A program made the translations under genes and the position numbers. A model generated the notes under the pieces. That model ran no database searches and was not told the DNA's origin. It saw nothing but the letters and a program-made list of their open reading frames with translations. A stretch of DNA of 64,000 bases from an uncultured Alphaproteobacteria bacterium (lineage in GTDB: Bacteria > Pseudomonadota > Alphaproteobacteria > Rhodobacterales > Rhodobacteraceae). Below are positions 26,933 through 38,327 of the stretch, piece by piece (the stretch's first letter is position 1; every line of letters begins with the position of its first letter). The stretch spans positions 2,093,337 to 2,157,336 of the forward strand of contig CAWHTQ010000019.1 in the NCBI GenBank assembly GCA_963832275.1. The letters are read 5' to 3'.

Positions 26933-28455
26933 TGGACGGGATGCTCGCGAACCTCGCGCTCGGCTTCTCCATCGCGCTCAGCCCGTGGACCCTGTTCCTG
27001 GCCGTGATCGGCTGCTTCCTGGGCACGATCATCGGCGCGCTGCCGGGGCTCGGCCCGTCCAACGGGGTCGCCCTCCTGATCCCGGTCACGTTCACCCTGG
27101 GGCTGGACGCGACGGCCGCCCTCGTCCTGATGACCTCGGTCTACTACGGCGCGATGTACGGCGGGCGCATCTCCTCCATCCTGCTGAACATCCCGGGCGA
27201 CGAGCCCGCGATGATGACCACGCTCGACGGCTACCCGATGGCCAAGCAGGGCCGGGCGGGGGACGCTCTCGTCATCTCCGGCGTGGCAAGCTTCGTGGGC
27301 GCGTTCCTGGCCACGGTGGGCCTGATGCTGCTGGCGCCGCTCCTGGCGAACGTCGCCTATCTCTTCGGCCCGGCGGAATACTTCGCGCTCTACCTCCTGG
27401 CCTTCTGCACCCTCTCGGGGATGAAGTCCGCGAACCAGGCCAAGGCCGCGCTGGCGTCCTGCATCGGGCTCGGCATCGCGATGATCGGGCTCGACAACAA
27501 CACCGGCATGCCGCGCTACACGGGCGGCAACCTGCACCTGATGGACGGGGTGGACTTCCTCGTCGCCATCGTCGGGCTCTTCGCGGTCTCGGAGATCTTC
27601 GTCTTCATCGAGACGCACGGCAAGGACAGCTCCATCGGCGTGAAGCTGGGCAAGGTGGTCGTGCCCTGGCGCGACCTGGGGCGCAGCTTCTGGACCATGA
27701 TCCGCGCCTCGGCCGTCGGCTTCGTCTGCGGCATCCTGCCGGGCGCGGGGGCGTCCCTGGGCAGCTTCATGGCCTACATGTCCGAGAAGTCGATCGCGGG
27801 GAAGGATGGCGGCTTCGGCTCCGGGGCGGTGCGCGGCGTGGCGGCGCCCGAGGCGGGCAACAACGCGGCCGCCGGCGGCGCGCTCGTCCCGATGCTGACG
27901 CTGGGCGTGCCCGGCTCGGGCACGACCGCGGTGCTGCTGGCGCTCCTGATGACCCTGAACATCACGCCGGGGCCGACGCTCTTCGTGGAGCGGCCGGAAG
28001 TCGTCTGGGGCCTCATCGCCTCGCTCCTGATCGCCAATTTCGTGCTGCTGGCGATGAACGTGCCGATGGTGAAGGTCTTCGTGAAGGTCCTCTCCGTGCC
28101 GCCGATGGTCCTGCTGCCCGGCGTCGCGATGGTCAGCTTCGTGGGCATCTACTCCCTGACGGGCAGCTATTTCGACCTCCTGCTGATGGTGGCGTTCGGG
28201 ATCATGGGATGGGCGTTCCGCAAGATCGGGGTCCCGACCGTGCCGATCATCCTCGGCATCCTGCTCGGCGGACAGATGGAGGACGCGCTGCGCCGGTCGA
28301 TGACGCTCTCGGACGGGGACTGGACCTACCTGTTCTCGTCGCCCATCGCCATCGGGTTCTGGATCGCGTCGGTCCTCGGCTTCGTCGCGCCGATCTTCCT
28401 GCGCGGGGTCCTGCGTGCGCCCAAGGGCCCCGAGGACCTCGACGCCGCGCGCTAG
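26932..28455 (+). CDS. tctA: Tripartite tricarboxylate transporter large permease
   Basis: [45 protein letters not shown]... TctA family. TGATG overlap with tctB. Confidence 0.85.
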
Positions 28456-28886
28456 AGGTCGAGGGGGATCGTCACCGGGCCGTCGTTCACCAGGCCCACG
28501 GACATGTCCGCTCCGAACCGGCCGGTCGCGGTCTCGACCCCGAGGGCGCGGAACGCGGCGACGGTCGCGTCATACGCGGCCTTGCCCTCCTCCGCGGGCG
28601 CGGCGCTCGTGAAGCCGGGGCGGTTGCCCCTCGCCTCGGCCGCCAGGGTGAACTGGCTCACCACCAGCGCCGCCCCGCCGGCCTCGAGGAGGGACCGGTT
28701 CATGCGTCCGTCCGCGTCGCGGAAGATGCGCAGCCTGGCGATCTTGGCGGCCATCCGCGCCGGCGCGTCCGGCCCGTCGCCCCGCATCGCGCACAGCAGC
28801 ACGAGGAGGCCCGGCCCGATGGCGCCGACGACCTCGCCCCCGACCGTCACGCGCGCCTGGGAGACGCGCTGGACGACGGCCCTCAC
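28452..28886 (-). CDS. dtd: D-aminoacyl-tRNA deacylase
   Basis: [15 protein letters not shown]...SQFTL, with the Dtd SQFTL and NxGPxT motifs. GTG start overlapping the upstream stop. Confidence 0.85.
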
Positions 28887-29800
28887 AGCTCGCCGCGCCG
28901 GGGTGGATTCGCGCCCGCGCGGGAGACGGTGATCGCGGCGGCGCGGGCGCCGAGCTCGAGGGCGGCGCGCAGCGCGCCCTCGTCCGGCAACTGAAGCGCC
29001 GCCTTGGTCAGGGCGCCCGCCTCGTGCAGCCCGGTCAGCAGCCCCGCGTTGAACGTGTCCCCGGCGCCGACGGTGTCCACGACCTTGGCGCGCACGGCGT
29101 CCTGACGGATCGCGCCGCCGGCATGGTAGGCGGTGACGCCGCGGGCGCCCTCGGTCACGCAGACGATGCGCGCCCCGCGGGCCAGGACGCCGGCCGCGAG
29201 ATCGGGCAGGGCGCCGTCCCCCTCGAGCCAGCGGAGGTCCTCGTCCGACGCCTTCACGATGTCGGCCGCGCCCGTCATGCGCATCAGGCGGGCGCGATAG
29301 GCGGCTTCGTCCTCGACGAAGCTCGGGCGGATGTTGGTGTCCACCATCGTCACGCGGTCGGGCGCCGCGGCGAGCATCAAGGCCTCGTAGGCCGCGCCGC
29401 AGGGTTCGGCGGCGAGGGAGATGCAGCCGAAGAACAGGACGTCCGCCGCGTCCGGCGCGGGCATGTCCTGCGGGTCCAGCATCCGCATCGCGCTGTTCTC
29501 GTCGTAGAATGTGTAGGTCGCCTGCCCCTCGGACAGCCGGACGAAGGCCAGCGTCGTCGGCCGGGCCGAGGCCTTGGCCAGCGAATGGTCCACCCCCGCC
29601 TCGTCCAGCACCGCGCGGAGCCGGTCGCCGAAGAGGTCGGAGGACAGCCCCGAGAAGAAGCGCACCGGCGCCCCGAGCCGCCCCAGCGCGACGGCCGTGT
29701 TGAAGACCGACCCGCCCGCATGCGGCGCGAAGGCGTCCTCGCCCGCCGCGGTCCGTCGGGGCAGCATGTCGATCAGGGCTTCGCCGGCACAGAGGATCAT
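28883..29800 (-). CDS. PfkB-family carbohydrate kinase (fructokinase-like)
   Basis: [12 protein letters not shown]... and C-terminal [12 protein letters not shown], the PfkB signature 2. Confidence 0.8.
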
Positions 29801-29855: not shown

Positions 29856-31160
29856 TCAGTCCGGAAGGGGCCGGGGGACGAGGTCGTCGCCCCGCAGGAT
29901 GACCGGTCCGCCGGGCGCGGGACGTGGCGCGAGATCGGGGAGGGGCCGGGGCGCATCGGGCAACTCGAACCCCGGCGCGCCGATCTCGGGCGAGGCGAGC
30001 TCCCCGCCCTCGGCCACGTAGAACGCGATGCCGGCGGCGATGACCGCGGCGAGGACGGCGAAGGCGATCTTGATCCAGCTGTAGGGCCGCTCGCCCGCGA
30101 CCGCGCCGGTCGAACCGTTCACCACGAAGCGGTAGCTCTTGCCGCCGTAACGGTAGGCCGCGATCCAGAGCGGAAGGAGGATGTGCCGGAACGTCTCCTC
30201 CGCGGTCACGGTCCGCGTGCCCGATATCCGCTGCGCGTCCCCGCCGATGTCCCGGCGGATCGCCGACTGGATCGCCGGGACCATCCGCGCCTGCGCCGCG
30301 GCCCAGGCGGCCGGCAGGTCGACGGTATAGGCCTCCGCGCGGAAGCCCGCGATCACCTCGGGGCGGTAGGGCGCGAGGGCGGGCAGGTCCCAGGGCGCCA
30401 CCCCGTCGGTCAGGGCTTCCGGCAGCGAAGCGCTGCCCAGGACCGTCAGGTCGTCGAACGAGACGCGCACCCGCCCGCGCGCGGGGTACCAGTCCATCCG
30501 GGTTCGGGTCTGCATCTCGCCCTTGGCGTTGCGGTAGGTCTCGGTCCGGGCGATGCCGCGCTGGCCCGTGTAGTCGGTCGCGGTCTCGGCGTCGAAGGTC
30601 CAGTGGGGCGCGTAGATGCCCGCCATGCGCCGCCCCGCGCGGGCGTACTTGCGCAGGGCGTTGGGCGCGAACCAGCGGCTGGCGAGCCAGCCCTTCAGCT
30701 TGCCGCGCGCCTCCTCCTCGGGCAGCGCGAAGGGGAGGAGGGCGGCGGGCCGGATGTGCCGGTCGGTCCCCGTGCCGGCGACGACGGGCGTGGCGCAGAA
30801 CGGACATTCCGAGGCCCGGACCGAGGGGTCGAGCTCGAACCGGGCGCCGCAATTGGGGCACTGGCTGACATGGGTCTCCTCGACCATCTCGGGTGGGGCG
30901 CCCGACAGCGCCGCGCGAAGGTCCATCTCCGCCAGGGCGAGGCCGCGCGCGCGCGCGGTGACCGGCGGGAGGACCTGGGCGCTGCCGCAGTGGTCGCACC
31001 GCATCCCGCCGGTGGCCGGATCGAAGCGCATGTCGCTCCCGCAGGCCCGGCATGGGAAGCGGTGCTCCTCCACTCCCGGCATGCGGGGCGCGTCGGGCGG
31101 CATGGCGGCCGCCGGCGCGGCCGGAAGACCCCGCGCGCGGGAGACGCGGGGCAGCTTCAC
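29856..31160 (-). CDS. Zinc-ribbon membrane-anchored protein (YdjG-like partner of SPFH proteins)
   Basis: Two CxxC...CxxC ribbons (CRACGS...CDHCGS and CPNCG...CPFCAT), a large soluble domain, one C-terminal TM helix and a Pro-rich tail. Start is 31160 (ATGA overlap) or 31082. Confidence 0.6.
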   Translation of the reverse strand: MKLPRVSRARGLPAAPAAAMPPDAPRMPGVEEHRFPCRACGSDMRFDPATGGMRCDHCGSAQVLPPVTARARGLALAEMDLRAALSGAPPEMVEETHVSQCPNCGARFELDPSVRASECPFCATPVVAGTGTDRHIRPAALLPFALPEEEARGKLKGWLASRWFAPNALRKYARAGRRMAGIYAPHWTFDAETATDYTGQRGIARTETYRNAKGEMQTRTRMDWYPARGRVRVSFDDLTVLGSASLPEALTDGVAPWDLPALAPYRPEVIAGFRAEAYTVDLPAAWAAAQARMVPAIQSAIRRDIGGDAQRISGTRTVTAEETFRHILLPLWIAAYRYGGKSYRFVVNGSTGAVAGERPYSWIKIAFAVLAAVIAAGIAFYVAEGGELASPEIGAPGFELPDAPRPLPDLAPRPAPGGPVILRGDDLVPRPLPD

Positions 31161-31708
31161 AAGAACCGGTGCAGGGCGCGGGGTGCCATGATCCGCAGGG
31201 CCCGGTCGTTCAGGGCGGTGTGCCGCCAGAGATGGAAGAGGGCATGCGCCCCGACGAGGGCCAGGAGCGCATAGAAGACCGCCCAGTGAACCACGCCCAC
31301 GACCTCGTTCGCCCGGTCGAGCCCCAGGGGCGGCGCGATCGGCACGATGCCCCCGGCCTTCAGCAGCACCGCCGAGGTCAGGCCGAGACCGAAGCCCGTC
31401 AGCGCCAGCACGCCCAGACCGGCGATCAGCGAATGATGCATGATCCGGTGCAGGGCCCGTGCCCAGCCGCGCAGTTTCGGCCCCGGCCGCGAGGCGAGGC
31501 CGCGGCGCATCCAGTCCACCACCCAGAGGAGCGAGAGCGAGGTGAAGATCAGCCCCAGATCGGAATGCAGCGCCACCATCCAGGGCCCCGCCCGCACCGT
31601 ATCCGCCGGGGTGACCACGGCGAACCAGATCAGGAGCGGCAGCATCGACCAGTGCACGACCTTGAGCACGGACCGCCGGTGCGGCAGGTGGCCGGCCAGG
31701 GCGCGCAT
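31157..31708 (-). CDS. Cytochrome b561 family protein
   Basis: 183 aa with 4 TM helices. Conserved His in VVHWSMLP, HSDLG, HHSL and VVHWAV. In-frame ATG at 31708. Confidence 0.75.
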   Translation of the reverse strand: MRALAGHLPHRRSVLKVVHWSMLPLLIWFAVVTPADTVRAGPWMVALHSDLGLIFTSLSLLWVVDWMRRGLASRPGPKLRGWARALHRIMHHSLIAGLGVLALTGFGLGLTSAVLLKAGGIVPIAPPLGLDRANEVVGVVHWAVFYALLALVGAHALFHLWRHTALNDRALRIMAPRALHRFL

Positions 31709-32845
31709 GGCGCGCAGGTCAGGCCGCCGGCGCCGGCGGGGGCGGGGGGGCATGACGGTGAAGAGCTGCGCCAGCTCCATCACGTCCTCGGCGCGTTGCC
31801 AGCCGTCCTGCCCTGCGGTCCAGACGAGGGTGTCGCGCGTCATCTCGCCCTCGCTCGCCATGCGTCCAAGGCGGGCCTTGGAGAAGGGTCCCCGCGTCTC
31901 GCCGGCCTCGGCGATGTGCCAGACATGCTCGACCGGCGGGGGCGGGGGCGGCGCGGCCTGCGCCGGGGAGCCGGCGGGCCGCGGCCCCCAGGGGCCCTGG
32001 GACATCTGGTTGGCCATCGCCATGCCCATGCCCATGCCGAGCCCCGCGCCCATGCCGCCGCCGCCGTTCGGGTTGGCCGCCGCCGCGGTCATCGCCTCGG
32101 CGGCCGAGTACTGGGTGAACTTCCCCAGGTCCCCGGCCATCCCCATCGAGGTGCGCTTGTCCAGCGCGGCCTCCACCGCGGGCGGCATCGAGATGTTCTC
32201 GATGTAGAGCTCGGGCAGGGACAGGCCGTATTCGGCGATCGTCGCGCTGATCGCGCCGGCGACGAGCTTGCCCATGTCTCCGGTGTTCGCCGCCATGTCG
32301 AGGACGGGAATGCCCGATTGCGCGACCGCGCGGGAGAACTCCTGCACGATGATGTTGCGGATCTGGTAGGTGATCTCGGCGGTGGTGAACTCGCCGTCGG
32401 TGCCGACGATCTCGCGCAGGAAGAGGGCGGGGTCCGTCACGCGCACGGCATAGGTGCCGAAGGCGCGGATGCGGACGGGGCCGAACTCCGGGTCGCGCAG
32501 GATGACGGGGTTCTTGGTGCCCCATTTCTGGTTCGTGAAGCGGGTCGTGTCGACGAAGTAGATCTCGGATTTGAACGGGCTGCGGAAGCCGTGGTCCCAG
32601 TGCTGCAGCGTCGTCATGATCGGCATGTTGTTGGTCTCGAGCATGTAGAGACCGGGGGTGAACACGTCTGCGAGCTGTCCCTCGTGGACGAAGACGGCGG
32701 CCTGACCCTCGCGGACCGTGAGCTTGGCGCCGTACTTGATCGCGTGCCCCTGCCGCTCGAAACGCCAGACCATCGTGTCGCGGGCGTCGGACGTCCAGTG
32801 GATGACGTCGATGAACTCGCCCTTGAGGAAGTCGAAGATCGGCAT
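31709..32845 (-). CDS. SPFH/Band-7 (Band_7_1-type) protein with C-terminal DUF4339; no stop codon before cyt b561
   Basis: MPIFDFLKGEFIDVIHWTSD...SPFH core...HVWHIAEAGETRGPFSKARLGRMASEGEMTRDTLVWTAGQDGWQRAEDV (DUF4339/GYF-like). The frame runs through a G7/C7 tract (31744-31750) into cyt b561. With one more C it would end ...TVMPPPPPPAPAA-TGA at 31719-31721. Confidence 0.7.
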
Positions 32846-33041: not shown

Positions 33042-34226
33042 ATGAGCCAACACGCTCCCCATGCAGCGCTCAGGCGCCTGATGGTCCTCGCGCCCAGTCC
33101 GTTCGACGGGCGCGGGCCGACGGCGACCTGCGCGCACCTGCTGGATGGGTTCGTCGCCGCCGGGCGCCCGGCGCATCTCTTCGCCAACCGGTTCCGCGTC
33201 CCGCGCTCCGCCTTCGGCGTGACCTACGCGATCCCGCGCTTCGCCGCGCGCGCCCCCTACCGGATGCTCCACCCCGCCGCGCGCCACCTGACCGAGCGGC
33301 GTTTCCTCGCCGCCCTGCGCCCCGGCGACATCGCCTATCTCTGGCCGGACGCCTCGCTGCCCCTGCACCGGCTCCTCCGCGAGCGGGGCATCTACATGGT
33401 GCAGGAGGCCATCAACAGCCGCATGGGATACGCCAAACCGATCCTCGATGCGGCGTACGAGCGCCTGGGCCTGCCTCCGAGCCACACGATCACCCAGCGT
33501 CGTATCGACGAGGAGGAGGCGAAGTACGCGATGAGCGACGCGATCTTCTGTCCCTCGCCGCAGACCGAGATCGCGCTGGACGGGACCGGCCACCCGATGG
33601 CCCGCATCCCGACCAGCTACGGCACGCCCTACGCGCGGGGCCTCACCTCCGAGCGGCCCGAGCGCGGCCCGGGCGAACGGGTGACCTTCCTGTTCGTCGG
33701 CTTCGCCTGCGTCCGCAAGGGCGTGGACCGGCTGCTGGAGGTCTGGAATCGCCTGCCGTCCAACTACGTCCTGCGGATGGTCGGGGACGTGGAGGACGTC
33801 ATCGGCCGCCTCTATGCGGAGGCGCTGGACGCGCCGAACGTCGAGACGCCGGGATATAGCGGCGACATCCCCGGCGAGATGGCCCGCGCGGACGTGTTCG
33901 TGTTCCCCTCCGTGGAGGAGGGCGATCCGCAGGTGACCTACGAGGCGGCGAATGCCGGCCTGCCGATCGTCGCCACCTATGCCGGCGGCGGGCGGTTCCT
34001 CGAGGAGCAGGACTGCGTCGTCGACGTGAGCGCCACGGATCAGGAGGCGCTCGCCGCGATCCTCCTGCGGATCGGCGCCTCGCACGAGGAGCGGATGGAG
34101 CGGGGGCGCGCGTGCCGGGCGGCGGCGCGGCGCTACGACTGGGCGGCGATCTCCGCGCGCCGCTCGGCCGACCTGGACGACCTGACCGGCAGGGCCGCGC
34201 CGACGCGGGACGCGGTGGCGGTCTGA
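33042..34226 (+). CDS. Family-1 glycosyltransferase (GT4-like)
   Basis: C-terminal ...FVFPSVEEGDPQVTYEAANAGLPIVAT... with the E-x7-E motif of GT-B retaining enzymes. Confidence 0.8.
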   Translation: MSQHAPHAALRRLMVLAPSPFDGRGPTATCAHLLDGFVAAGRPAHLFANRFRVPRSAFGVTYAIPRFAARAPYRMLHPAARHLTERRFLAALRPGDIAYLWPDASLPLHRLLRERGIYMVQEAINSRMGYAKPILDAAYERLGLPPSHTITQRRIDEEEAKYAMSDAIFCPSPQTEIALDGTGHPMARIPTSYGTPYARGLTSERPERGPGERVTFLFVGFACVRKGVDRLLEVWNRLPSNYVLRMVGDVEDVIGRLYAEALDAPNVETPGYSGDIPGEMARADVFVFPSVEEGDPQVTYEAANAGLPIVATYAGGGRFLEEQDCVVDVSATDQEALAAILLRIGASHEERMERGRACRAAARRYDWAAISARRSADLDDLTGRAAPTRDAVAV

Positions 34227-34230
34227 CGGC

Positions 34231-35175
34231 TCAGGACCCCGGTGCGGGCGGCACCAGCTCGAGGGCGATGGCGCGCGCGACCGGAGCCGCCTCGGCGGCC
34301 GACATGCCGGGCGTCAGGCGCGGGTCGTAGAGCATCGTCAGGAGAAGCTCGTCATGCCGGGTCAGGAGGGCGAACTCCTCGTCGTCGTTGAAGATGGACG
34401 GCCGCGCCGTCGGGCTGTCATTCGCCAGGCCCAGACCCTGCGCGATCTCCTCGTGATAGCACGACCGGCGCGTCAGGTCGGGGTGCTCGGCGCGCACGAT
34501 CGCGACCGCGCCGGTATAGGTGAAGCGCCCGGGCTCCGAGAAGGCGAGCGCGAGGCAGTAGATGCTGCGCGGGATCTCGGTCGCGGTGCGGATCGACGCG
34601 TCCGAGATGCGCGGGACCAGCTCGCGAAGCAGGGGGCCGGCGGATTGCCGCTCGGCCTCGCCGAGCACGAGGACGTGGAAGTTCGCCCGTGAAGGCTCCG
34701 TCACGCTGACCGGGTGGCCCGTCGCGCGCGAGAGCCGGGCCGCATAGCGCGCGATGTCCGCCAAGTCGTCGCGCCGCCGCTCCGCGGTGACGCCGCCGCC
34801 GAAGGTCACGCCGATGCGCACGGGCTGCGTCCAGCGGCGGAGCTGGGTGCTGGTCGGGCTCTGGATGAGGCGGCCGGTCGAGGTTTCGCGATACTCGTCG
34901 AACAGCGCGATCTCGACGAAGTCGCGCGTCAGGTCCTCGGCGTCGAACGCGGTGTCCGGGCCGCCGCCGTCCTGGCGCAGGAGGCCCTGCGCCTGCAGCC
35001 GGCTTTCCTGGGACGCGTAGAGCGCGATCAGGCGCGGATCGAGCCCGGTGCGCGCGGGCGGCGGCGGGGACGCCGCCGGCGGCCGCCCGGGCGCGGGCGG
35101 GAGGGACGCGCTCGGCGGCGCGGCCGCGCAGCCCGCGAGCGCGAGCGCCGTCACGAGGGCGGCGGTCGTCCTCAC
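34231..35175 (-). CDS. DUF2927-like lipoprotein
   Basis: GTG start, then LVTALALAGCAA lipobox. Conserved FVEIALFDEY...SIYCLALAF... core. GTGA overlap with telA. Confidence 0.55.
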   Translation of the reverse strand: MRTTAALVTALALAGCAAAPPSASLPPAPGRPPAASPPPPARTGLDPRLIALYASQESRLQAQGLLRQDGGGPDTAFDAEDLTRDFVEIALFDEYRETSTGRLIQSPTSTQLRRWTQPVRIGVTFGGGVTAERRRDDLADIARYAARLSRATGHPVSVTEPSRANFHVLVLGEAERQSAGPLLRELVPRISDASIRTATEIPRSIYCLALAFSEPGRFTYTGAVAIVRAEHPDLTRRSCYHEEIAQGLGLANDSPTARPSIFNDDEEFALLTRHDELLLTMLYDPRLTPGMSAAEAAPVARAIALELVPPAPGS

Positions 35176-36366
35176 CCGGCGGGGACCGATCCGGAAGCGG
35201 TCTCGCCCAGCCCGGTCCTGCGCGCCTTGGCGGAGGCGAGCGTCTCGCGCAGCTCGGCCTCCATGCGGCGCAGGTCCTCCTCGGCGGCGGCGCGCTTGGC
35301 CTTGCCCTCGTCGGCGATCGCGAGGCTCTCGTTGATGGTCGCCACCAGGTCGGCGTTCGCCGCCTTCACCGCCTCGATGTCGAAGACGCCGCGCTCCATC
35401 TCGGTGCGGATCGCCTTGTTGCTGTCGCGCAGGTTCTTGGCGTTCGAGCGCAGCAGGTCGTTGGTCAGGTCGTTGGCGCCCTTCACCGCGCTCGCCGCGT
35501 CGGCGCTGCGCTGCATGGCGACGGCCTGCGCCAGCTGCGTCTCCCAGAGCGGGACGGTGTTCACGAGGGTCGAGTTGATCTTCGTCACCAGGGACTTGTC
35601 GTTCTCCTGCACGAGCCGGATCGAGGGCAGGGACTGCATCGTGACCTGGCGCGTCAGCTTCAGGTCGTGGACCCGCCGCTCCAGGTCGTCGCGCGCGGCG
35701 CGCAGGTCGCGCAGCTCCTGTGCCTTCATCACCGCCTCGCCCTCGGGCGCGGCCTGCATCTCGGCCTCCTTGGCGGGGATGTCGGTGGCGTCGACCTCGG
35801 CGAGCTTGGCCTCGCCGGCGGCGATGTAGAGGGCCAGCTCGTCGTAGAAGTCGAGCGTCTTCTCGTAGAGGATGTCGAGCGACTTGATGTCCTTGAGCAG
35901 CACCTGCTCGTGGTCGAGCAGCTCCTCGGTGATCGTGTCGATCTGGTCCTGCACCTCCTCGAACTTGGCGCGGAACTTGGCGATGGGCGCGGCCCGGCCC
36001 AGCAGCTTGTCCCACCAGGTCCGCTCGCGCCCGACGCCCAGCTCCTCGGTGGAGAAGCCGCGGATGTGCGTGACGATGTCGCGCAGGGAGTTGCCGGCGG
36101 GGCCCACGTCCTTGTTGCGCACGCCGGCCAGCATCTCCTGGCTGATCGCCTGGAGCTCGGCCTGCGCGGCGCTGCCGAAGCTGACGATGGAGCCGGTGTC
36201 GCCGATGTCGAGCTCCCCCATCCGGCGGCGGATCTCCTCGTCCGGGGCGGCCGCCTCGCCGATGGCGGGCACCTGCGCGGCGGGCGCGGGCTCGCGCAGC
36301 GCGGCGGACAGGCTCGCCAGCTCGGCGGTCGCCGCGCTGGGCCTTGGTCTTCACGTCGGTCTTCAT
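35172..36366 (-). pseudogene. telA: TelA/KlaB toxic-anion (tellurite) resistance family protein, N-terminal frameshift
   Basis: TelA domain QVPAIGEAAAPDEEIRRRMGELDIGDTGSIVSFG...KLTRQVTMQSLP.... The ATG at 36366 has a GGAGAG RBS, but the reading frame shifts after about 10 codons: MKTDVKTKAQ then AATAELASLSAAL in the other frame. Confidence 0.65.
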
Positions 36367-36367
36367 G

Positions 36368-37262
36368 TCAGCTCTCCACTTTCACGCCCTCGCGCCGCAG
36401 GCGGTCGCGCAGCACCTCGAGCTCGATGTCCAGTCCGGTGCGGTCGTCGAGCATCAGCCGCTCGGTCCGCTGGGCGAAGCCCCCCTCCATGTCGTCGAGG
36501 AAGGCGAGGTAGTCGCGTCGTGCATCGGCATCCCCGGCGCGCGCATAATAGGCCGCGAACTTGTCCGTCGCGTCGCGCGCACCGCGCAGGTAGACGCCGA
36601 GATAGCGCCGCGCCTGCGTCAGGTCGCGGGGATCGGCCTCCACCTGGCGGAACAGCTTTCGCGCCGCGCGCCGCGAAGCTGCTCGATCCGGGAGGTCAGG
36701 GCGCGATCGCCCAGAGCGCCGATCCGGGTCGTCATCTCGGTCAGGATCGCCTCGGCGTCGTCCACCATCCGGGCGACCCGATCCGATTGATAGGTGTCGG
36801 CGCCCGTGGGCAGCTTGTCGCGCATGGGATCGATGCCGAAAGCGGCGAGGTGCAGCGCGCCGCCCAGCACGCCGAAGACGATCGCCCCGAGCACCGGCTC
36901 GACCAGGTCGCGCCGAGCGCGGCGAGGGCGAGGGCGGTCGCGGCCGCGCCGAGCATCTTGCGCGGGATCGCCGGGCGGCGGGCGGCGGCGCGGGCGTCGT
37001 ACGCGACTTCCGCCTTGGCGCCTTCGCGGGTCAGCCATGCGGCGAACGCCAGCAGGCCGCCCGCCGCGGCGTGCAGCGCGACGCCCGCGGGGCCGGCGCC
37101 CAGGGCCGGCAGGGCGGCGACCACCGCCAGCGCCATCAGGATCCACAGGCGCGCGGCGAACGGCGCGCGCCGGCGGCCGTCGAACGGCCGTGCCGGGCCG
37201 GCGGCGTCCACCCGCTCGCGCGGCGTCGCCCTCGGGCGCGTCCGGGCTGTGCGCCCCGCCAT
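36368..37262 (-). pseudogene. XpaC-like (5-bromo-4-chloroindolyl phosphate hydrolysis protein family), two frameshifts
   Basis: Two N-terminal TM helices, then a soluble domain ...DTYQSDRVARMVDDAEAILTEMTTRIGALGDRALTSRIEQL... / ...YLGVYLRGARDATDKFAAYYARAGDADARRDYLAFLDDMEGGF... split across three frames. Adjacent to telA, as for xpaC-yaaN in Bacillus. Confidence 0.45.
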
Positions 37263-37431
37263 AGCGCCTGGCCATCAGGCGCCGCCCCAGGCCGCGTAGA
37301 GCACGCAGGCCGCGAGCAGCGCGAAGGCGATCTTGCGTACGGTCGGTCCGGGCACGCGGGCGCCTCCTGCTGCGTTGCGGCGTGGTCTATCTATGCGCCC
37401 CGCGCACCGGCCCCAAGTCCATAACCGCGCC

Positions 37432-38250
37432 TCACCCGCGCGATTGCGTGCGCCGCTGGGTGTCCAGCTTGCGGCTGTAGCCGGTCTGGATGATCTCCAC
37501 CGCGAAGAGGACGAGGACCGCGAAGTAGAAGGTCGACTTCGACATCGGCACGATCGGGTAGCCGAAGACGCGCACGATGTCCTCGTCGAGATGGGTGGCA
37601 TGCTCGGCGGCGACCCCGGCCTCGCCCAGGAGGACCACGCCGACGATCAGGAGGATGAAGAGGCCCAGCACCTCGAACATGCGGTTCTTCTTGATGAACT
37701 CGGTCACCGCGTCCGCGAGGATCAGCATCGCCGCGCCCGAGAGCAGGATCGCCGTGGCGAGGACCCAGAACACGTCCGTGATCGCGAGCGCCGAGAGCAC
37801 GGAGTCGAAGCTGAAGATCAGGTTCATGAACACGATCAGCGCGACGACCTTGGCCGCGGACTTGCCCCCCTTCTGCGCCACGTCCTCGCCGATATGCTCG
37901 ACCGTCAGGAGATGCCCGATCTCCTTGACGGCGGTGTACATGATGAAGATGCCCCCGAAGACGAAGACGACGGTGGAGAAGTTCACCGCGCCCGTGAGGA
38001 CGCCTTCCCAGGCGAAGCGGAAGAACGGCTCCGACAGCAGCGAGATCAGCGAGATCATCACGAAGAGAAGGACCACGCGCAGCGCCACCGCGATGATGAT
38101 GCCCCAGAAGCGGACCGCCTTCTGATGCGCCAGGGGCGCCCGCTGCGATTCGATGGAGATGTAGAGGAGGTTGTCGAAGCCCAGCACGGCCTGGAGGAAG
38201 ATCAGCATCACGAGATTGCCGAGGTTTTCGGGGGAGAACAGTTCGGCCAT
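37432..38250 (-). CDS. terC: TerC-family integral membrane protein
   Basis: LQAVLGFDNLLYISI and a second repeat FSFDSVLSALAIT, the TerC signatures. Codon usage is visibly less GC-biased than its neighbours. Confidence 0.85.
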   Translation of the reverse strand: MAELFSPENLGNLVMLIFLQAVLGFDNLLYISIESQRAPLAHQKAVRFWGIIIAVALRVVLLFVMISLISLLSEPFFRFAWEGVLTGAVNFSTVVFVFGGIFIMYTAVKEIGHLLTVEHIGEDVAQKGGKSAAKVVALIVFMNLIFSFDSVLSALAITDVFWVLATAILLSGAAMLILADAVTEFIKKNRMFEVLGLFILLIVGVVLLGEAGVAAEHATHLDEDIVRVFGYPIVPMSKSTFYFAVLVLFAVEIIQTGYSRKLDTQRRTQSRG

Positions 38251-38327
38251 CTGGGCGCTCCGCTGCGGATTGTCGCGTCACAACACGGCGGGGCGCCCCG
38301 GGTTGCAACCCCCGGGCGATGCGGGTC

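Follow-up and report, generated by a model that had tools for sequence, protein, structure and literature searches.

To our knowledge, the SPFH protein YdjI and its zinc-ribbon partner YdjG have so far been studied only in Bacillus, where they are tied to PspA. YdjG consists of two zinc ribbons, an NTF2-like domain related to YpeB and a transmembrane segment, while YdjH is a membrane protein with a TPM domain (PMC11237479). In B. subtilis, YdjG and YdjH are both required to recruit the soluble proteins YdjI and PspA to the membrane (PMC8581546). The system has been renamed SamGHI, and SamI has been proposed to restrain signalling by SamGH (bioRxiv 10.64898/2026.02.06.704340). Here we describe homologues of YdjG and YdjI encoded in a 64,000-nucleotide stretch of DNA (the window) from an uncultured alphaproteobacterium of the order Rhodobacterales, family Rhodobacteraceae (GenBank assembly GCA_963832275.1, contig CAWHTQ010000019.1, positions 2,093,337 to 2,157,336). 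The gene lying between them encodes a member of the cytochrome b561 family (b561). The reading that we favour, at a probability of roughly 0.55, is that the locus represents a Rhodobacterales YdjG/YdjI-type SPFH module with b561 as a lineage-specific accessory membrane component.

Open reading frames were listed and Pfam scans were run on translated frames; window-wide searches covered all 64 kb. The region around the three genes has a G+C content of about 72-75%, and its main features are as follows (ZnR, zinc-ribbon protein).

31719..32845, minus strand: gene for an SPFH (Band_7_1) protein with a GYF_2 domain, the YdjI/SamI homologue; ATG at 32845; natural end expected at TGA 31721-31719, which is out of frame as assembled.
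31744..31750, minus strand: run of seven C within the poly-proline tail (G7 on the plus strand), the frame-shift site that joins SPFH-GYF_2 to b561.
31157..31708, minus strand: gene for a CybB-like cytochrome b561 of 183 amino acids with four transmembrane helices; ATG at 31708.
29856..31160, minus strand: gene for ZnR, with two zinc ribbons, a YpeB/PepSY-like domain and a C-terminal transmembrane helix, the YdjG/SamG homologue.

A first-pass annotation of this DNA had listed genes for ZnR, b561, SPFH-GYF_2, a PfkB kinase and dtd, and all five are supported by Pfam matches, cysteine motifs or a transmembrane helix. When the first three proteins were searched with profile hidden Markov models (HMMs), Band_7_1 (PF13421) and cytochrome b561 (PF01292) were matched, whereas the 434-residue ZnR gave only sub-threshold matches to zinc-ribbon families in Pfam. 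ZnR contains two CxxC...CxxC motifs, all eight cysteines of which are invariant across 42 diverse homologues, and a single hydrophobic C-terminal helix (residues 365-383). To compare ZnR with its proposed counterpart, we used a B. subtilis-type pspA-ydjGHI locus (L087) that was retrieved from metagenome contigs via a published ydjG primer sequence and whose YdjH is a TPM protein. ZnR aligned with the YdjG of this type by BLASTP (E=2e-35, 25% identity over 333 residues), and a profile of the 42 ZnR homologues aligned with YdjG by hhalign with a probability of 100% (E=3e-47) over 316 columns, from the ribbons through the transmembrane segment. The domain layout and fold of ZnR also agree with the published description of YdjG (two zinc ribbons, YpeB-related domain, transmembrane segment).

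The start of ZnR is uncertain. Nucleotides 31160-31157 read GTGA, providing a candidate GTG start over the TGA stop of b561; the alternative is an ATG at 31106, and residues 1-30 are poorly conserved among close relatives and have low predicted local distance difference test (pLDDT) scores. The tight coupling by an ATGA overlap at 31157-31160 that had been claimed is thus not found as such, and any coupling depends on which codon starts ZnR.

The SPFH protein matched Band_7_1 (PF13421, E=1e-99) followed by GYF_2 (PF14237, formerly DUF4339; E=1e-18) in Pfam, and has no transmembrane segment in its SPFH part. It aligned with B. subtilis-type YdjI with 28% identity over 260 residues (BLASTP E=3e-36). 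Thus, by sequence comparison, both proteins are homologues of the Bacillus pair, and the likeness to pspA-ydjGHI that the first-pass annotation had pointed out reflects true homology. Each of six SPFH homologues that we read ends in a poly-proline tail (...MPPPPPPA). In the homologues read, the tail follows immediately upon the GYF_2 domain (window 31727-31930), and within the clade of the window the N terminus of ZnR is also proline-rich. As proline-rich peptides are ligands of GYF domains, these features suggest self-association or docking. A PDB sequence search with the SPFH protein matched its GYF part to a Myxococcus gliding-motility protein (7z3c); apart from this match, PDB sequence searches with TelA and the SPFH protein were uninformative.

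PspA and YdjH of the B. subtilis type gave no match when searched by tblastn against the 64-kb window (best E>3). In the collinear relative L002, no PF04012 gene was called within 8 kb on either side of the locus and no TPM gene occurs in the gene list. The earlier remark that PspA is missing therefore holds both for the window and for the neighbourhood of L002.

The middle gene encodes a credible di-haem cytochrome of the CybB type. The 183-residue protein has four hydrophobic helices and matched PF01292 with 37.8 bits (cut-off 30.1), and PF01292 appears in the precomputed Pfam annotation of nearly all its listed orthologues. Its AlphaFold2 (AF2) model is a four-helix bundle (pLDDT 91.7), for which Foldseek returned 5OC0, the E. 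coli superoxide oxidase CybB, as the sole significant match among solved structures (probability 1.00, E=7.7e-4, TM-score 0.67-0.70, 171/174 residues, 16% identity). A PDB sequence search with b561, as a single sequence and as a profile, gave no match. Seven histidines (H19, H48, H87, H91, H141, H155 and H159) are invariant in 48 orthologues. The haem ligands of CybB are H13/H45/H137/H151, and we take H19/H48/H141/H155 of b561 to correspond to them; in the CybB literature both haems are bis-His coordinated. Haem binding by b561 is likely, and the invariance of all four candidate ligands argues that the gene is under selection.

To learn how widely this arrangement occurs, we surveyed one genome per species. 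The ZnR family numbers 881 representatives below 1e-30, and an alignment of 42 ZnR sequences was too diverse for a locus scan. As the scan was made with an alignment of 16 closer ZnR sequences, all of the 80 loci returned (about 17 kb each) are from Rhodobacterales; their contents were determined by tblastn and HMM searches. A same-strand backbone, TelA-DUF2927-SPFH-(gap)-ZnR-(PfkB or other)-dtd, is conserved over most of the 80 loci. In most Rhodobacterales the genes form a tightly spaced same-strand array with the order XpaC-TelA-DUF2927-SPFH-(b561)-ZnR-x-dtd (L002, L084 and L085 among them).

The gap between SPFH and ZnR is where the loci differ. It holds a window-type b561 gene in 17 of the 80. 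Six loci have only a short b561-derived gene (about 140 amino acids) in which H19 and H155 are kept and H48 and H141 are lost, and two have only a canonical PF01292 gene (77-87 bits where scanned). In about 40, the gap is empty and SPFH abuts ZnR. Of the 17 loci with window-type b561, 4 have the short derivative in addition, and a canonical PF01292 gene accompanies window-type b561 in L072 (one of the 80) and in L083 (Sulfitobacter alexandrii, fetched separately), where three b561-family genes stand in tandem before ZnR. In at least 25 of the 80 species, ZnR is thus directly preceded by one to three b561-family genes, and no b561-family open reading frame was found elsewhere in the loci. Three look-ups anchored on b561 itself (Sulfitobacter alexandrii, Roseobacter ponti and Oceaniglobus trochenteri) all led to the SPFH-ZnR gap. 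In a few loci the gap contains unrelated genes, namely Acyl_transf_3 (L012), a DLH-like hydrolase (L079) and several genes together (L064); a gene for a secreted protein also occurs there.

The closest relatives and many further Rhodobacterales keep the synteny of the three genes, and b561 does not reside elsewhere in close relatives, so that the trio withstands the check that the first-pass annotation had proposed. b561 is not an integral part of the module, given the many species in which SPFH abuts ZnR and the unrelated genes found in the gap of others. With the gap empty in about half of the species, the core pair can evidently do without b561, which is a position-specific, dispensable accessory to SPFH and ZnR.

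In three loci (L019, L032 and L067), b561-ZnR-PfkB-dtd is retained with no SPFH gene within 8 kb. These belong to a clade that includes Roseicyclus and Gymnodinialimonas, in which, L041 also included, SPFH, TelA and DUF2927 are all missing within 8 kb upstream; L005 was too short to be judged in this respect. In this clade the cytochrome gene stays with the ZnR gene and not with SPFH. Species with b561 are dispersed across the ZnR tree, while the tree of b561 itself repeats the shallow groupings of ZnR. This pattern is consistent with an ancestral b561 gene that was inherited together with ZnR and lost several times.

The other genes of the array in the window are the following.

28452..28886, minus strand: dtd, D-aminoacyl-tRNA deacylase (PF02580, E=1e-49); GTGA overlap on the PfkB stop.
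28883..29800, minus strand: PfkB-family sugar kinase (PF00294, E=2e-42); probable start MILCAGEAL, 55 nucleotides past the ZnR stop.
33042..34226, plus strand: GT4 glycosyltransferase (Pfam).
About 34231-35172, minus strand: DUF2927 lipoprotein (PF11150, E=1.5e-62).
35172-36272, minus strand: TelA (PF05816, E=1e-104).
36368-37275, minus strand: XpaC-like (Halogen_Hydrol, PF10112) gene, broken by indels.

Genes for TerC, the XpaC-like protein, TelA and the DUF2927 lipoprotein thus lie directly upstream of SPFH (window 34231-38250), TerC being identified by collinearity with L002 only. Near 38318, upstream of TerC, the window is without 35 nucleotides that L003 has as a short tandem repeat (GGGCGTCGGGCG...). 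GT4, which separates DUF2927 from SPFH in the window, was detected among 82 loci in the closest relatives L001-L003 alone. It therefore seems to have been inserted recently, providing the SPFH operon with an upstream region of its own. At the same place Sulfitobacter alexandrii has a GmrSD-type restriction gene (PF03235/PF07510; L083 914-2608). A scan for promoters and terminators gave no signal over background, and NCBIfam returned no family-level names for SPFH, ZnR or DUF2927. Downstream of ZnR, dtd is present in most Rhodobacterales loci and almost always kept next to ZnR, while PfkB follows ZnR in only some of the 80. In L083 and L084 a nitroreductase gene takes the place of PfkB between ZnR and dtd, with a 4-nucleotide overlap with both neighbours. 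A functional role of PfkB and dtd in the module was considered and rejected, as the gene at the PfkB position varies and is sometimes a nitroreductase.

How could b561 have come to occupy the gap? It is possible, if somewhat unlikely, that it is an unrelated passenger, inserted early in the roseobacters into a gap that tolerates genes, then inherited vertically and lost many times. The empty gap in about half of the species and the assorted genes found there in L012, L079 and L064 are in keeping with this. So is the neighbourhood, as PfkB, nitroreductase and dtd are likewise syntenic without an obvious functional link, and a b561 tree that tracks the ZnR tree is what simple co-inheritance would produce. 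A passenger would not readily explain why three classes of b561-family gene, among them canonical PF01292 members, recur within the loci at this one position, up to three in tandem, nor why they invariably share the strand of ZnR and either lie close to it or overlap it. The b561-ZnR adjacency also survives where SPFH is not nearby, and the invariant candidate haem ligands speak for a gene that is under selection.

We return to b561 as an accessory of a YdjG/YdjI-type module. The large N-terminal part of ZnR (the two ribbons and the YpeB/PepSY-like domain) would be cytoplasmic, with one C-terminal transmembrane helix. Most likely ZnR would anchor or regulate the soluble SPFH-GYF_2 oligomer at the inner membrane, or act there as its sensor, much as YdjG and YdjH do for YdjI. 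b561 would most likely be a second membrane partner, either as a redox input (quinone pool or superoxide) or as a client of the SPFH assembly, and would stand in place of the missing second membrane protein, YdjH. Always immediately upstream of ZnR, it would have been inherited with ZnR and repeatedly lost. Together with the XpaC-like, TelA and DUF2927 neighbours, the pair may form one stress-related array. In Firmicutes, both TelA and XpaC are associated with membrane stress and with resistance to daptomycin (PMC6811118); by analogy with this link to membrane stress, TelA might fill a PspA-like role here.

Several points weigh against this interpretation. The tie of b561 to SPFH and ZnR is one of gene order only, and it is from gene order that we infer an SPFH scaffold organising a redox protein. 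The core pair does without b561 in about 40 of the 80 species. Because acyltransferase, hydrolase and secreted-protein genes occupy the same gap, the site may just tolerate insertions, and vertical co-inheritance alone could account for the conservation of window-type b561. Haem binding by b561 and the topology of ZnR are likewise predictions.

As assembled, the window has no stop codon between GYF_2 and b561, and the two form a single open reading frame of 562 amino acids (32845->31157). This raised the question of whether SPFH-GYF_2 is fused to the cytochrome. In both of the closest relatives, L001 and the metagenome-assembled genome MFD03250.bin.1.113 (L002/L003), the three genes are separate, with an SPFH protein of 374 amino acids, a b561 of 183-186 amino acids and ZnR. 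The SPFH protein of L001 is 95% identical to that of the window, and ZnR of L002/L003 is 88-89% identical. The distance from the last Met codon to the conserved GGCCTGA is 35 nucleotides in the window, compared with 27 in L002 and 30 in L001, which places the TGA at 31721-31719 out of frame. Relative to L003 there is a 2-nucleotide indel, and it falls in the seven-C run at 31744-31750. One added C would give back MPPPPPPAPAA followed by the stop, and the ATG of b561 (31708) would then come 10 nucleotides on. The best 120 homologues of the 562-residue frame are all 365-382 amino acids long and cover the SPFH-GYF_2 part alone, and the 562-residue protein is the sole fused member of its 12-member 90% cluster.

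A second gene on the contig is damaged in a similar manner. About 5 kb away, the XpaC-like gene is spread over multiple frames by single-base indels near 37222, 36899, 36678 and 36669, although each piece still aligns well with the intact 301-residue protein of L002. As the gene shows no further decay, such damage resembles indel error in the assembly; the alternative is a pseudogene of very recent origin. Given the unfused relatives, the homopolymer position of the indel, the broken XpaC-like gene and the poly-proline tail and TGA that can still be read in the old frame, the SPFH::b561 fusion is probably an artefact, caused by a one-base assembly error in the C7 run. A consideration on the other side is that the frameshifts are not evenly spread and cluster in the XpaC-like gene, which could mean real pseudogenisation. 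The first-pass description of SPFH and b561 as separate genes is therefore true of the relatives, while in the window as assembled they share one frame.

Were the fusion real, a one-base deletion would have tethered SPFH-GYF_2 to the cytochrome, and the protein would serve as a "Rosetta stone" for joint function. We think this unlikely. The frame is uninterrupted over 562 residues, and an identical protein has been recorded from a contig of 2.45 Mb. The topology would also be compatible, as the SPFH part has no transmembrane segment, the basic N terminus of b561 (HLPHRRSVLK) should face the cytoplasm, and the arginine-rich linker agrees with the positive-inside rule. Yet the fusion is a singleton, seen in none of the 120 best homologues and none of the 11 other cluster members. 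The shift, moreover, lies within a homopolymer and ruins the poly-proline tail seen in the six homologues read, a tail that the old frame of the window still encodes together with its TGA. That a second gene on the contig is also broken by single-base indels points in the same direction.

A bolder version of the accessory reading, which we hold to be improbable, assigns the roseobacter CybB-like di-haem cytochrome, as a dedicated subunit, to an SPFH complex of the SamG/SamI type that has no PspA. The cytochrome would then link membrane redox state (superoxide or the quinone pool) to an SPFH-based membrane-stress response, with the fusion as its "Rosetta stone". Finally, an anti-phage defence or conflict system built of SPFH and the zinc-ribbon protein, hinted at by the match of the GT4 neighbour to "GT4-conflict" (E=1e-6, 28.5 bits with the cut-off at 26 bits; its matches to generic glycosyltransferases are stronger) and by the GmrSD gene next to SPFH in Sulfitobacter alexandrii, is highly implausible and was rejected, as PADLOC gave no match for SPFH-b561, ZnR or GT4 and the array lies on the chromosome between housekeeping genes and keeps its gene order throughout the Rhodobacterales, unlike mobile, patchy defence islands.

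Together, these results show a known core, the SamG/SamI pair, in a setting that is new at the level of the phylum, and with b561 as a novel optional part. The pair is a conserved chromosomal feature of marine Rhodobacterales, where it occurs without PspA and YdjH and beside TelA and XpaC-like genes, and b561-family cytochromes hold the middle position in about a third of species. If the cytochrome is a true partner, the locus would tie an SPFH membrane scaffold to the redox or reactive oxygen species chemistry of the membrane, a concrete and testable connection, in organisms for which light-driven oxidative stress matters. Even with b561 as a passenger, the locus remains useful as a Gram-negative model of the core SamG/SamI pair. 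It is a worthwhile lead for work on SPFH and Psp biology and on roseobacter stress physiology. The apparent domain fusion, probably an assembly indel, calls for caution.

Among known systems, E. coli CybB is the closest counterpart of the middle gene. Both belong to PF01292, and the window protein is modelled as the same four-helix bundle, with histidines on TM1-TM4 (transmembrane helices 1 to 4) where the haem ligands of CybB lie; it also shares with CybB the C-terminal ...D-x-x-L-R-x-M-x-P motif. In contrast to CybB, to which it is 16% identical, window b561 represents a distinct Rhodobacterales subfamily bound to one genomic position, adjoined by short derivatives that are without two of the histidines.

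SPFH proteins with dedicated membrane clients are known from HflK/C with FtsH, QmcA with YbbJ/NfeD, and mitochondrial prohibitin and stomatin-like proteins with the respiratory complexes. As in these systems, the window has the gene of an SPFH oligomer beside an integral membrane partner that it is presumed to organise or regulate. The SPFH proteins of these systems differ in being themselves membrane-anchored and belonging to other SPFH subfamilies, and neither the NfeD partner nor the FtsH partner was seen at the window locus. A scaffolding role of Band-7 proteins in the assembly of the respiratory chain has been discussed (Gehl & Sweetlove 2014, cited in PMC11237479). Our literature search for SPFH proteins with cytochrome b561 returned only one unrelated paper on plants, in line with the first-pass suggestion that the pairing of an SPFH scaffold with a membrane redox protein is undescribed. 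The literature searched contained no report of a YdjI-type SPFH protein as scaffold for a b-type cytochrome client, and comparative papers on psp make no mention of cytochromes in such a setting.

The closest relative of the locus as a whole is pspA-ydjGHI. In both, an SPFH protein of the Band_7_1 type and a protein homologous to YdjG/SamG from end to end are encoded by neighbouring genes on one strand. The window differs in having no PspA at the operon head and no TPM-domain YdjH/SamH between the pair, and in its gene order, I-x-G compared with G-H-I in Bacillus. Its SPFH protein ends in GYF_2 and poly-proline, whereas YdjI ends in a zinc ribbon. The pair lies within an XpaC-TelA-DUF2927 array rather than in a sigma-W pspA operon, and the gene in its middle is an optional CybB-like cytochrome b561.

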